NCBI GenBank assembly: GCA_963730185.1
Contig: CAVSQW010000006.1
Coordinates: 480,001-544,000, forward strand
Origin: an uncultured Gemmatimonadales bacterium
GTDB taxonomy: Bacteria; Gemmatimonadota; Gemmatimonadetes; Gemmatimonadales; GWC2-71-9
Direction: 5' to 3'
DNA: 64,000 nucleotides
Notes under the pieces: generated by a model
What the model was told of the DNA's origin: nothing
Database searches by the model: none
What the model saw: the letters and a program-made list of their open reading frames with translations, nothing else
Position numbers and translations under genes: made by a program
Part shown: positions 3,968 to 11,126 of the stretch, one piece after another
How positions within the stretch are numbered: position 1 is the stretch's first letter
Layout: each line of letters begins with the position of its first letter

Positions 3968-4116
3968 GTTGATCTCCCGGTGGGCGAATCGGGGCAGCGC
4001 GACCGACGGAGTGGTCGTGCAAGCTCGCACCCAGACCCGACGAGGTGAAGCCCCACCCGCTGATTTGCCCCGCACCCACCGATCCCGGATATTCGACGCT
4101 CACGGAGGGAGACTCC

Positions 4117-5124
4117 ATGCAGCGCCGAGATTTCGTTCGGGGTGCGGCCGCGACCGCCGCCCTCGCCGCCTGGCCCGACCACCTGAGGGCCTTTCCCCGC
4201 GGGGCGCCCAGCCGGCCGCCGTTGCTCAACGCCCACGCCCACGTCAACAGCCAGCGGGTCGCCGATCACCTCGCCAGCCTCATGGGCCGGCGAGTACTCG
4301 AGCCCCTCGATGGCGCCGAGATCATCCGCCGCCTCGACCGAATGGGCATCCGCCGCGCCTTCGTGCTGTCGACCGCGTACATGATGGCGTCAGACGTCGG
4401 CCACCCGCTTCCGCCCGACGAGGAGCAGAAGGCCGTGGCGGCCGAAAACGACTTCGCCGCGGCCCAGGCGGCCCTGGCACCCGATCGGCTGATCCCGTTC
4501 CTGAGCGTGAACCCGAAACGCGACTACGCCACCGCCGAGATCGACCGGGCCGTCGATCGCAACGGGATGCGAGGCTTGAAGCTGCATTTCTGGAACTCGA
4601 TGGTGGACCTTCGCCAGCCGGACCAGCTGGTCAGCGTCAAGCGCGCCATCGATCACGCGGCGGCCCGCGGCCTGCCCGTGGTGGGGCACGTCTATATCGG
4701 GGCCGTCAAGGACTTCGGACCCGACGACATCGATCGGATCATCGACCAGATCATCCTCCCGAACGAAGGGCTTCGCTTCTCGTTCGCTCATCTGGGTGGC
4801 GCGGGCGGATTCGCGGGCGTCGTGCAGCGGATCTTCGCCCGGCTGGTGGAACGGGTCGGGCCGGGCCATCCGGCTGCCAACCGGGTCTTCGCCGACATGG
4901 CCGTGACCCTGCTGGCCGACGGCATCGGGCCGATCCCGGCCACCCCACCGGCCGCCCGGGCCCGGATGGGAGAGCTGCTCCAGGGATGGGGGCTCGACCG
5001 GGTGTACTGGGGCAGCGACACCTTCGAGGCCTCGCTCGCCCAAACGGAGGCCGCCTGGCCGCTCGACGAGGTCGCGTGGGACCGCCTGGCCAGCAACACC
5101 GGCAACCGATTCCTGGGGAGCTGA
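4117..5124 (+). CDS. Tat-exported amidohydrolase family protein (Amidohydro_2-like)
   Basis: MQRRDFVRG twin-arginine signal after a GGAGGGA RBS; NAHAH, GLKLH, AHLGG and WGSD metal-site motifs. Confidence 0.82.
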   Translation: MQRRDFVRGAAATAALAAWPDHLRAFPRGAPSRPPLLNAHAHVNSQRVADHLASLMGRRVLEPLDGAEIIRRLDRMGIRRAFVLSTAYMMASDVGHPLPPDEEQKAVAAENDFAAAQAALAPDRLIPFLSVNPKRDYATAEIDRAVDRNGMRGLKLHFWNSMVDLRQPDQLVSVKRAIDHAAARGLPVVGHVYIGAVKDFGPDDIDRIIDQIILPNEGLRFSFAHLGGAGGFAGVVQRIFARLVERVGPGHPAANRVFADMAVTLLADGIGPIPATPPAARARMGELLQGWGLDRVYWGSDTFEASLAQTEAAWPLDEVAWDRLASNTGNRFLGS

Positions 5125-5155: not shown

Positions 5156-5212
5156 TTGACAGGTCAACCCCGGAACCAGACATTGGGAGGAGAAACCGAA
5201 CAAAAACCGAAA
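5156..5212 (+). promoter_or_regulatory. sigma70-type promoter with SOS-box-like direct repeat
   Basis: TTGACA (5156-5161), 17 nt, GACATT (5179-5184); ACCGAA repeated at 5195 and 5206 (GAAC-N7-GAAA); the palindrome TTGACagGTCAA overlaps the -35. Confidence 0.55.
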
Positions 5213-5220
5213 GTCAGAAC

Positions 5221-5391
5221 ATGACGCCTTCTCCCGCGCACGAACCTCTCCCCGACCAGCCCGCCGTGCGCACCGGTTCCGGAGGCCCAACCTACCTTCG
5301 GATCAGGGTTTGCCCCGAGTGCGCCGGGCCCGTCGTGCACGCGTCCGGCTGCCTGAGCTGCCCCCACTGCGGCTGGGCCCGGTGCGGCTAG
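5221..5391 (+). CDS. Small six-cysteine zinc-ribbon protein (56 aa) resembling the class II ribonucleotide reductase C-terminal tail
   Basis: Manual translation: MTPSPAHEPLPDQPAVRTGSGGPTYLRIRVCPECAGPVVHASGCLSCPHCGWARCG*. Below the ORF-track cutoff; lies between the promoter and the radical SAM gene. Confidence 0.75.
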   Translation: MTPSPAHEPLPDQPAVRTGSGGPTYLRIRVCPECAGPVVHASGCLSCPHCGWARCG

Positions 5392-6422
5392 CCGCGGCCC
5401 GACCTCGGCCAGTAGAGCCGACCCGCCCGCCTGGGCCAGCCAGGCCTGCCCAGCTGGCCCTCGAGCTCGGCCGGGCTCGACCGCCCATGCCGGTGCTCGA
5501 CACCCGCCGGCGCGGCTCACGGTTCGTAGGCCTCACCAGTCGGTCGGTGCTCAACTCGCCGGGGAGCACCGGTATGGACTTCTGGACCCTGAATCCCTAC
5601 GTGGGATGCGAGTTCGGGTGCTCGTATTGCTATGCTCGGAACACCCATCGCTGGGTCACCGAGCGGAATGCCGACCGTGGCCCGCGCGAGCTCACCGCCC
5701 TGAGCCCGGCCCAGGCCTTCGAGCGGAACATCTTCGTCAAGCGGAACGCCGCCCTGGTGCTCCGCCGCACCCTCGACCCGAGGAAGCTCAGCGGCACCCC
5801 CCTGCTGATCGGAACCGCGACCGATCCGTATCAGCCGGCGGAGCGCCGCTTCGGGGTTACCCGGTCGGTGCTCGAGGCGCTGACCGAGTATCGGGGGCTC
5901 GACCTCAGCCTTACGACCAAGTCGGCTTTGGTGACTCGGGACCTCGACGTGCTGCAGGAGCTTGGCGCCCGGCACCGGCTCACCGTGAACATCTCCCTCA
6001 TTTCGATGGACCGGGAGTTGATCCGGCGGCTCGAGCCCCGGACGCCGCTGCCCCACACCAGGCTCCGGGCGTTGGCCGCGCTCAGCGGTGCCGGGATCCA
6101 GGCGGGGATCATGATCGCGCCGATCGTCCCGGGCCTGACCGACGGGTGGGGGGCCCTGGGTGGCTTGCTGGCCGCGGCCAAGGAGGCCGGGGCGCGTTTC
6201 GCGGTCGGGTCGGCGCTCCGACTCAATCCCGGAGCGCGTGCCGGCTTCCTCCCCGTGCTCGAGCGGGAGTTCCCCGAGCTGGTGGGACGCTACCGCCGCC
6301 GCTACGGTCAGCGGACCGGCCCGGAGCGGGCGTACGGGGCGGCGCTGGAGAAGCGGTTGACCACCCTCCGGGCCATCCACGGCTTGCCCGGCGGCACTCT
6401 CCGCTACCGGCCGGCCGATTGA
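5382..6422 (+). CDS. Radical SAM protein, SplB/Rv2578c-like (spore photoproduct lyase-related DNA repair family)
   Basis: LNPYVGCEFGCSYCYAR (CxxxCxxC), GTATDPYQPAERRF..TR, TTKS..V.RDLD and APIVPGLTD motifs. Start inferred at GTG 5382, overlapping the small-ORF stop; the ORF track start is 5310. Confidence 0.88.
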   Translation: MRLAAARPRPVEPTRPPGPARPAQLALELGRARPPMPVLDTRRRGSRFVGLTSRSVLNSPGSTGMDFWTLNPYVGCEFGCSYCYARNTHRWVTERNADRGPRELTALSPAQAFERNIFVKRNAALVLRRTLDPRKLSGTPLLIGTATDPYQPAERRFGVTRSVLEALTEYRGLDLSLTTKSALVTRDLDVLQELGARHRLTVNISLISMDRELIRRLEPRTPLPHTRLRALAALSGAGIQAGIMIAPIVPGLTDGWGALGGLLAAAKEAGARFAVGSALRLNPGARAGFLPVLEREFPELVGRYRRRYGQRTGPERAYGAALEKRLTTLRAIHGLPGGTLRYRPAD

Positions 6423-6431
6423 GGCAGCGGG

Positions 6432-7415
6432 TCAGTCCAGCGTCAGCACGATCTTACCGAACACCTCGTTCGCCTCCATCGCCGCGTGCGCCTGCGCCAC
6501 CTCGACGAGCGGGAACACCGCGCCCACCACCGGTTCGAGTCGAACCGGCGTGGCGCCCGCCTCGAACAGTCCGATCACCCGTTCCTCGAACTCCCGCACC
6601 AGCGGCACCCGTTCCGCCCGGCCGCGGGCCCGCATGACCGTGCCGATGATCTCGAGGCGATTGCGGAGCACCTGGCCGAGATTCACGTCGGCGGCGTGCG
6701 GCCCTTGCAGGGTGCCCAACAACACGAGCCGACCGCGCGGCGCGAGCGAGGCGAGATTGTCCGTCAGCGCGCCCCCGCCGAAGAAATCCAGAATCACGTC
6801 GGCGGGCGCGTCGAGGGCCGATCGGAAGCCGACGGTCGAGGTGTCGACGCCCCGGTCGAGCCCCAATCGCACGGCGTGCTCCAACTTCGCCGCGGTGCGC
6901 GAGGTGCCGATCGACACGGCGCCGAGCCACCGGATCAGCTGAACGGCCGCGGTGCCCACGCCACTTCCCACGGCATGGACGAGCACCCGCTCTCTCGGCG
7001 CCACCCGGGCCCGCGTCACCAGGGCGTCGTACGCGGTGAGGAACGCTTCGGGAATCCCCGCCGCCGCCTCGAACGAGAGGCCGGCGGGCATCGGCAGCAC
7101 CTCGTCTTGGTGAACGGCCACGAACTCGGCCTGGGCGCCGCCGCCCACCAGTCCCATGACCCGGTCGTCGGCTCGCCAGCGGCCGGCCTCCGGGCCGAGC
7201 GCCACGATCTCGCCGGCGTATTCGAGGCCCGGGATGTCCGCGGGCCAGCCGGGCGGCGCGGGATAATTGCCTTTGCGCTGGATGATGTCGGCCCGGTTGA
7301 GTCCCGCGGCCCGAACCCGCACCAGCACCTGTCCCGGACCGGGGGTCGGAGTCGGCACCTCGTCGAGCGAAAGAACCTCGGGACCTCCGGCACCATGGTG
7401 TACGATGGCTTGCAT
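6432..7415 (-). CDS. NAD(P)H-quinone oxidoreductase, PIG3/zeta-crystallin family
   Basis: GLNRADIIQRKGNYP, PGLEYAG, HAVGSGVG and C-terminal GKIVL motifs. Confidence 0.92.
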   Translation of the reverse strand: MQAIVHHGAGGPEVLSLDEVPTPTPGPGQVLVRVRAAGLNRADIIQRKGNYPAPPGWPADIPGLEYAGEIVALGPEAGRWRADDRVMGLVGGGAQAEFVAVHQDEVLPMPAGLSFEAAAGIPEAFLTAYDALVTRARVAPRERVLVHAVGSGVGTAAVQLIRWLGAVSIGTSRTAAKLEHAVRLGLDRGVDTSTVGFRSALDAPADVILDFFGGGALTDNLASLAPRGRLVLLGTLQGPHAADVNLGQVLRNRLEIIGTVMRARGRAERVPLVREFEERVIGLFEAGATPVRLEPVVGAVFPLVEVAQAHAAMEANEVFGKIVLTLD

Positions 7416-10712: not shown

Positions 10713-11072
10713 TCAGGCCGGCGAGTGACGTCGCCGGCGGCGGACGACCGCCCGGCTCCGCCGGCTGCGCCCGAGCTGCCGGACCGCCTCTCGGGACTGC
10801 GCCGCCAGCCGCGTCAACTCGTCTCGATCCAATCCGGCAAGCGGTAACTCGACCCAGCCCAACGGGCTCGGCACCGGCTCGTCCACGAGCGGACGGCCCC
10901 GGGCGCGGGCCATGAGCTCCTGGCGCCGGGGCTCCGGCAGCCGCAGCAGCAGCGACCGCTCGCCCACCAGGGCGAACATGCGGCCCGCCGTGAAATAGCC
11001 TTCGCGGTTCGTAAGGCGGCGAACGGAGACACCCGGGAGGGCACTCAGAAGGGTACGGATGGCGTCGGACAT
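10713..11072 (-). CDS. TfoX N-terminal/YjbR-like small protein
   Basis: GYFTAGRMFALV...LLLRLP...GWVEL...L..LAAQS pattern typical of TfoX_N/MmcQ-YjbR folds. Confidence 0.55.
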   Translation of the reverse strand: MSDAIRTLLSALPGVSVRRLTNREGYFTAGRMFALVGERSLLLRLPEPRRQELMARARGRPLVDEPVPSPLGWVELPLAGLDRDELTRLAAQSREAVRQLGRSRRSRAVVRRRRRHSPA

Positions 11073-11126
11073 CGGGGCAGCGATTGTATCGCCCGGAGCG
11101 GGCCCGCGCCACCCCGATCCGAAGGT

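Follow-up and report, generated by a model that had tools for sequence, protein, structure and literature searches.

A free-standing, SOS-boxed homolog of the NrdJ redox tip, usually in an operon with a SplB-like radical SAM gene, in Gemmatimonadales

The two genes and their upstream region

The window analyzed here (the whole stretch of 64,000 nucleotides, from an uncultured Gemmatimonadales bacterium) carries on its forward strand an open reading frame (ORF) of 56 amino acids, 5221..5391, which runs from an ATG to a TAG and encodes a variable, proline-rich N-terminus followed by a predicted six-cysteine zinc ribbon. The start codon is uncertain, being either ATG 5221 or GTG 5266. The product ends in CPECAGPVVHASGCLSCPHCGWARCG, and its six cysteines all fall within the last 26 residues, as an earlier note on this DNA had described. 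These residues are encoded by a conserved core of 26 codons (5311..5388, forward strand) of the form C-P-x-C-x9-C-x2-C-x2-C-G-W-x2-C-x with the stop codon next, a homolog of the C-terminal zinc/dithiol tip of the class II ribonucleotide reductase (RNR) NrdJ.

The core aligned without gaps in 38 of 38 copies found from the side of the radical SAM gene that follows, and the six cysteines, Pro2 and Gly21 were invariant in all of them; the N-terminus varies between relatives and is not conserved. Across these copies pN was 0.254 and pS 0.65, so that the check for purifying selection proposed in the earlier note came out in favor of the ORF. Uncorrected pN/pS was 0.39 in the ORF frame versus 0.63-1.98 in the five other frames, codon identity was 0.47 at third positions versus 0.76 and 0.73 at the other two, and GC at the third codon positions of the core is 1.00. 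The six-cysteine pattern followed by a stop occurs only twice in six frames of the 5.27 Mb genome, at the small ORF and at the end of nrdJ, and a chance origin of the ORF is therefore rejected. Judged by these sequence measures, the 56-aa ORF is a real conserved gene and its six-cysteine core is under purifying selection. The Cys-x-stop end was found in 116 of 116 distinct copies, those standing without the radical SAM gene included, these copies having been chosen by the pattern. Two degenerate copies were also seen, one (L202, genome G065) without the first CxxC and one (L015) frameshifted, reflecting either decay or assembly error. An AlphaFold model of the core (pLDDT 88) has three short strands in a small ribbon. 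A fold search with the 31-residue model returned generic zinc ribbons and Rieske fragments only (Z no higher than 3.3), which is uninformative at this size, and a PDB sequence search with the core found generic zinc fingers alone.

The second gene of the operon, 5382..6422 on the forward strand with GTG 5382 as its probable start, encodes a radical SAM protein of the Rv2578c/PA0069-like (SplB-like) kind. The GTG lies in the radical SAM frame 7 nt before the TAG at 5389-5391; where the earlier note had the stop of the small ORF overlapping this GTG, the in-frame start and a 10-nt overlap of the two genes were confirmed, but the stop codon itself is not overlapped by it. The protein matches PF04055 (E 2e-11) and scores 213.8 bits against a cut-off of 430 for NF038135 (Rv2578c) and 209.7 against 360 for NF033668 (PA0069), and by these scores it is a relative, not an equivalog, of Rv2578c/PA0069. 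Identity as a spore photoproduct lyase (SplB) was rejected, with scores below the cut-offs (25.3 bits versus 400 for TIGR04070, 17.4 versus 27 for PF20903) and no conserved fourth cysteine. A PDB sequence search with the protein gave no match. A QLALEL stretch (5451-5468, forward strand), 5' of ATG 5487, fits a QLxL-type motif kept at the N-terminus in relatives; most relatives, though not this protein, have such a motif at the C-terminus too, and we take it to resemble a sliding-clamp binding motif. Some relatives (L106, L208) have 3' of the radical SAM gene an ORF starting MxRSVLFIDPPAF, presumably a Y-family polymerase.

Read from 5382, the radical SAM protein has the three cysteines of its CxxxCxxC motif (5607-5630, forward strand) and no others, as the earlier note had said. 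The argument built on this, that the peptide supplies a cysteine which the enzyme is missing, does not hold: no fourth cysteine is conserved across the relatives of the enzyme, with or without the peptide, and a missing cysteine therefore fails to single out the peptide-linked enzymes. The stretch GTATDPY (5811-5831, forward strand) belongs to a motif G[TS][AG]TDPY that was found, without a cysteine, in 80 of 80 radical SAM relatives. Cys140 has a role in spore photoproduct lyase, and primer sequences in the accessible part of the same source suggest that G[TS][AG]TDPY is the counterpart of the Cys140 region (PMC3467042). Extra cysteines averaged 2.65 and 1.88 in peptide-free clades versus 1.17, mostly in columns that differ from clade to clade, and in the single shared column a cysteine was present in 0 of 5 close relatives whose peptide is absent or truncated. 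The idea that extra cysteines stand in for the peptide in peptide-free enzymes was dropped, the columns being mostly clade-specific.

Upstream of the small ORF there is a TTGACA -35 hexamer (5156..5161, forward strand), with GACATT, a poor match, at the -10 position (about 5179-5184). A sigma-70 scan called no full promoter at the small ORF, so that of the TTGACA promoter read by the earlier note only the hexamer was recovered. TTGAC occurs at the same distance in many relatives, where TATATT occupies the -10 position, under a second operator.

A LexA-type direct-repeat operator, CCGAACAAAAACCGAA (CCGAA-N6-CCGAA), lies at 5196..5211 on the forward strand and was absent from the earlier note. 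The upstream regions of relatives have TTCGG-N6-TTCGG or its reverse complement in common. When 65 sites in front of related radical SAM genes were made into a matrix, it gave 27 sites above the threshold of 14 bits over the host genome, with the window site second-best. The box also precedes lexA, in two copies, as well as recA, uvrB and an imuA/imuB-like pair, and the operator common to lexA and recA is thus the one present here; several matrix sites precede unrelated genes or fall inside genes. For a box with an A/T-rich core, exact sites numbered 8 at a spacer of 6 and 0, 0, 0, 0 and 1 at spacers of 4, 5, 7, 8 and 9. For 113 of 116 distinct copies a relaxed form of the box lies upstream at a distance of no more than 300 nt, versus 2.5% of random windows. 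There was no box in 700 nt around the start of host nrdJ. Candidate sites of a CCGAA-N6-CCGAA regulon in the host genome (G000), made up of lexA, recA, uvrB, the imuAB-like pair and several unassigned genes, are C15:702364, 702394, 526680 and 485643, C3:38912, C6:223248, C12:195279 and 121366, and C14:321385. Weaker boxes lie in the window at 6778, inside a quinone-oxidoreductase-like gene (21.6 bits), and at 11119, near the start of a small gene at 10713-11072 (15.1 bits).

From these sequence data we infer that LexA binds the CCGAA-N6-CCGAA box and that the operon is damage-inducible, and the best reading of the microprotein gene is that of an SOS-regulon gene in its own right. The box resembles the direct repeat of alphaproteobacterial LexA, given as GTTC-N7-GTTC in the available text of PMC8565304. 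A literature search, mostly of open-access papers, found no description of a LexA box for Gemmatimonadota.

Relation to the NrdJ tail

The top family match of the peptide was PRK08665 (NCBIfam, B12-dependent RNR) at positions 731-759 of 759, the last 29 positions of that model (E 8.8e-7), which bears out the earlier note in taking it for a homolog of the six-cysteine NrdJ tail. Its spacing, C-x2-C-x9-C-x2-C-x2-C-x4-C, is identical to that of the host nrdJ tail, and the full six-cysteine spacing is common to NrdJ tails alone. A match to HVO_0416 was weak (E 0.015), and there was no Pfam Com match at E up to 1. In the Atlas the peptide fell with clusters that have no family name (0.94 and 0.92) and with a viral cluster (0.92), named families all scoring below 0.9; HVO_2523-like and Com clusters are among the neighbors and, since their scores are under 0.9, are leads only.

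Likeness to the host tail is limited beyond the spacing. The peptide is identical to it at 11 of 26 positions, the net charge is -4 in the host NrdJ tail and averages +0.9 in Gemmatimonadales peptides, and the peptides have a fixed Ser12, Trp22 and basic residue 24 where the host tail differs. The peptide has neither a catalytic barrel nor an IscU-like/TSCPD domain, and nrdJ is on another contig, C15 (C15:269215-271994 of G000; L081:5216-7995), with its own tail present. Host nrdJ is spread over three frames with two apparent frameshifts, the pieces spanning the whole model including the tail; the splits are probably assembly indels. The possibility raised in the earlier note, a decayed 3' end of nrdJ left by a deletion, is contradicted by this full nrdJ with its tail elsewhere and by the gene before the ORF: an Amidohydrolase_2 protein (4045-5124, with a weak TAT signal match, and not kept beside the peptide in the relatives viewed) precedes it, so the small ORF is no stump of a deleted nrdJ.

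NrdJ was full-length with its own tail in 5 of 5 genomes tested that have the peptide and lack the enzyme. A role for the peptide in completing a tail-less NrdJ was considered and dropped, four apparent tail losses being contig ends. Identity as a class II RNR or NrdJb subunit was likewise rejected, the peptide being the tip only in a host whose NrdJ keeps its own tail. One carrier of the peptide, G108 (98% complete, 230 contigs), has no PF02867 or PRK08665 match, which reflects either an assembly gap or another class of RNR.

Copies with and without the radical SAM gene

Among the best 80 of 582 radical SAM loci, the small ORF lies upstream on the same strand in 37. In a quick tree the peptide-linked loci form one clade (SH-aLRT 98, 41 rows), whose three rows without the peptide comprise two contig edges and the frameshifted L015. 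Across the phylum the core profile matches 254 of 301 genomes, four unpublished ones being counted in. In the family to which the window belongs, most genomes have both a long-frame match (nrdJ) and a short-frame one, whereas in other families the long-frame match is mostly the only one. Linkage was scored in 106 genomes with a listed short-frame match, a set that leaves out G000, G057 (unpublished), G113, G295 and 215 unlisted matches. The peptide is upstream of the radical SAM gene within 3 kb in 97 of the 106, among the matches listed, the synteny for which the earlier note had called; the radical SAM match begins within 600 nt in 92 and at 0.6-3 kb in 5. Stop/start overlaps between the two genes are common. 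A programmed frameshift fusion, suggested by the common -1 overlap, was rejected; overlap frames vary and both inserts and unlinked copies exist, so plain coupling suffices. In genus g7 and in G191 the peptide gene is separated from the radical SAM gene by unrelated genes or repeats (L208, L209, L211, L318-L340). G163 and G191 have two peptide copies each, and the enzyme gene of G163 has its own box.

In the 9 unlinked genomes the radical SAM gene is on another contig (2) or has no match (7). Three of the nine (G083, G235, G236) are contig edges, and six are true orphans (G038, G102, G154, G193, G227, G240), G240 having only a separate PA0069-type gene. In genus g11 (the best 30 of 48 matches less two unpublished, giving 28 loci), the enzyme is downstream in 14, none is within 1.5 kb in 13, and the contig is too short in 1. 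NF033668 was found in 0 of 15 orphan genomes (the first five 95-99% complete, ten further 57-98%); a linked genome used as positive control, G326, was found. Orphans keep the six cysteines, and they keep the box too except L302 and G227. For four orphans with the same upstream gene pN was 0.075 and pS 0.571, and for three others 0.159 and 0.583. The next gene of most orphans is on the opposite strand. Their shared context, as opposed to a species tree, suggests a shared loss of the radical SAM gene. Since the peptide is kept where the neighboring repair enzyme is lost, it probably has a job of its own.

The converse arrangement, enzyme and box with no peptide, was found in 23 Gemmatimonadaceae-type loci and also in G039, G090, G078 and G069, and 17 Acidobacteriota-type loci have the enzyme without the peptide. 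In Acidobacteriota, 21 of 151 genomes (one unpublished genome included) match the core, all in frames of at least 259 aa, with no stand-alone copy.

Protein searches with the peptide returned 64 close matches and 1744 representatives; among the best 150 representatives, 120 are of 90 aa or less with the same spacing, although some of these may be contig fragments. One subgroup, of low GC, lies on contigs from metagenomes and from IMG/VR. The 72 viral loci comprised 46 with a stand-alone copy, 17 with a long or edge frame and 9 without the pattern, and a radical SAM gene was present in none of the 72; the loci are not independent, because most come from one metagenome. Neighbors of the viral copies (39 of 74 listed neighbors were scanned) include DNA methyltransferase, endolysin, holin, terminase and RusA-like genes. 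In low-GC phage or prophage contigs (L112-L165, L216-L256) the six-cysteine ORF is often directly 5' of a DNA methyltransferase or endolysin gene. An RNR was found in 0 of 5 viral contigs with a stand-alone copy (40-86% complete), so any RNR target of viral copies would be the host's. GenBank phages gave 50 records, the 40 listed being nearly all NrdJ tails, and plasmids gave 5, of which 4 are annotated as RNR.

The dedicated partnership proposed in the earlier note, taken as obligate, is not supported, given a peptide under selection without the enzyme, an enzyme without the peptide in Gemmatimonadaceae and Acidobacteriota, and viral copies that stand alone. Of the two-component damage-inducible module that it proposed, the damage-type operator survives but obligate pairing does not, each gene being kept alone. 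A peptide-radical SAM complex prediction scored 0.38 versus 0.00 for the best control (runs 0.00, 0.61 and 0.38), with contact agreement between runs of at least 84% and a partner pLDDT of at least 55. The mark used was passed by 116 of 157 solved complexes and 2 of 215 mismatches, counts that apply here only roughly; passes at 0.60 or below make up 18 of the 157 solved complexes and both passing mismatches.

Possible roles and known systems

The reading that we prefer, while holding it tentatively, is that of an SOS-controlled zinc/dithiol microprotein acting in trans on host NrdJ and perhaps tuning the supply of DNA building blocks. DNA damage would lead to cleavage of LexA and production of the peptide. 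On the model proposed for the NrdJ tail, Cys 1, 2, 4 and 5 would be zinc ligands that keep Cys 3 and Cys 6 in place as a redox pair. Acting in trans, this free pair would shuttle extra electrons to the active site or the fused tail of host NrdJ, so that more dNTPs would be available for repair and for translesion synthesis. Alternatively, the peptide would be a competitor that damps NrdJ turnover; the sequence does not give the sign of the effect. The radical SAM gene would be a co-regulated operon neighbor and at most an optional second client; given the weak complex score, the peptide may interact with its product in a non-exclusive way.

The link to NrdJ is drawn because the peptide retains, along with the Cys-x-stop end, the two cysteines that are not zinc ligands in the NrdJ model, features needless in a plain ribbon; an end of this kind in all copies is like an RNR tail that has to reach an active site. 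Cys3 and Cys6 are invariant (38/38), only NrdJ tails have the full spacing, and the orphans are selected without the enzyme in genomes whose NrdJ is tailed. SOS control together with carriage by RNR-less phage contigs makes host NrdJ the simplest common target. The low identity to the host tail, whose charge is of opposite sign, the strong radical SAM linkage, the complex score with that enzyme and the carrier with no RNR match count against it, and co-occurrence of peptide and NrdJ is of little weight because NrdJ is near universal in the phylum. In the accessible text of PMC5704485, all six tail cysteines of the Stackebrandtia NrdJ were needed for TCEP-driven turnover, zinc is proposed to be bound by Cys 1, 2, 4 and 5, with Cys 3 and 6 as the redox pair, and the tail can pass electrons between subunits. 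Thioredoxin, glutaredoxin and lysates failed to reduce the tail, and the whole cysteine-rich domain (CRD), expressed separately, did not rescue the TCEP-driven activity of truncated NrdJ (PMC5704485). This failure counts against action in trans, although that CRD aggregated.

The cysteines that speak for NrdJ are also what weighs on a rather doubtful alternative, in which the link to NrdJ is ancestral only and the protein is a generic SOS zinc ribbon that binds nucleic acid, RNA polymerase or another repair protein, or that senses redox state or zinc: four cysteines would suffice for it, yet six are conserved along with the Cys-x-stop end. In a variant it regulates the following gene, like haloarchaeal Brz or like Com of phage Mu, a small zinc ribbon regulating the gene that follows; regulation in cis would have no target in most orphans, where opposite-strand genes come next, and the Pfam Com search was negative. 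The generic fold matches, the departures from the host tail at residues 12, 22 and 24, the viral neighbors and, as leads only, the HVO_2523-like and Com neighbors in the Atlas are all compatible with a generic ribbon, and small CPxCG proteins can act as regulators according to the part of PMC2253796 available.

It is unlikely that the peptide serves the radical SAM enzyme as an accessory (a thiol or H-atom relay, an electron shuttle or a cluster protector) with a second role to explain its survival alone. The close and often overlapping gene pair, the single clade, the weak complex score and the additional cysteines of peptide-free clades would fit such an accessory. One clade is, however, one historical event, the additional cysteines sit mostly in clade-specific columns, and G[TS][AG]TDPY is cysteine-free in every relative; selection on the peptide persists without the enzyme, the enzyme occurs alone in many loci, and the pair is split by inserts in g7 or given separate boxes in G163. 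A short six-cysteine peptide immediately 5' of a radical SAM gene also recalls the precursors of ranthipeptides (SCIFF), whose partner radical SAM enzymes have SPASM/RRE domains and which have a conserved leader. That the enzyme modifies the peptide in this way is highly improbable, given an enzyme with PF04055 and a weak SPL match and no SPASM or RRE domain reported, an N-terminus that is not conserved, an SOS-type box, and peptide and enzyme each found alone. The least credible account, largely refuted, is a decayed nrdJ 3' end or a leader ORF kept only for translational coupling; homology to the nrdJ end, the widely varying N-terminus and start, and the two degenerate copies are what it would explain, against a complete nrdJ on C15, no TSCPD or catalytic remnant upstream, where the amidohydrolase gene lies, and synonymous change far exceeding replacement change even in orphans with no gene to couple.

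If the peptide acts on NrdJ, a protein would tie the SOS response directly to dNTP supply. More broadly, and with still less assurance, free NrdJ tips may form an undescribed class of trans-acting class II RNR regulators or electron carriers that was recruited to the SOS response in Gemmatimonadales and is carried by RNR-less phages; through such a class, dNTP supply would respond directly to DNA damage or infection. Its members might belong to the missing reducing route of CRD-type NrdJ, for which thioredoxin, glutaredoxin and lysates failed in PMC5704485. As a synthetic peptide, the natural 26-residue free redox tip is a ready reagent for tests of electron delivery or inhibition in trans. 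Whatever its role, the locus brings to light a conserved microprotein that had been overlooked and, for Gemmatimonadota, a candidate LexA operator.

The tail domain is known as the end of NrdJ or of NrdJb (PMC5704485; PMC9669993, each in part), and a literature search (mostly open-access, main texts without supplements) found no stand-alone NrdJ tail. With the CRD zinc finger described in these sources and at the end of PRK08665, the peptide shares its spacing, C-terminal place and predicted zinc ribbon, and it keeps both the proposed zinc ligands and the proposed redox pair. It differs in being free-standing (35-70 aa) with no IscU-like/TSCPD part or catalytic barrel, in having an SOS-type operator and a host with an intact nrdJ, and in sequence. 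The split class II RNRs likewise encode the tail apart from the catalytic subunit; NrdJb, however, is a whole CRD of 150-220 aa serving a tail-less NrdJa (PMC5704485, PMC9669993, as far as available), whereas the peptide is the tip alone, away from nrdJ, in a host whose NrdJ has its own tail. Brz, HVO_0416, HVO_2523-like proteins and phage Mu Com are likewise small zinc ribbons that stand alone, some before the gene that they regulate; the peptide has instead six cysteines in the NrdJ spacing, and its matches to those proteins are weak.

SplB-like radical SAM genes are SOS members in several phyla, and the available portions of this literature mention no small six-cysteine partner (PMC8565304, PMC3765255). 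The enzyme here has the CxxxCxxC motif and family-level similarity in common with these proteins (COG1533; NF038135, NF033668) but falls below both curated cut-offs and has no fourth cysteine like Cys140/141 of spore photoproduct lyase. Set beside these systems, the small gene is an SOS-boxed, free-standing NrdJ redox tip that is usually in an operon with a SplB-like enzyme and does not depend on it.
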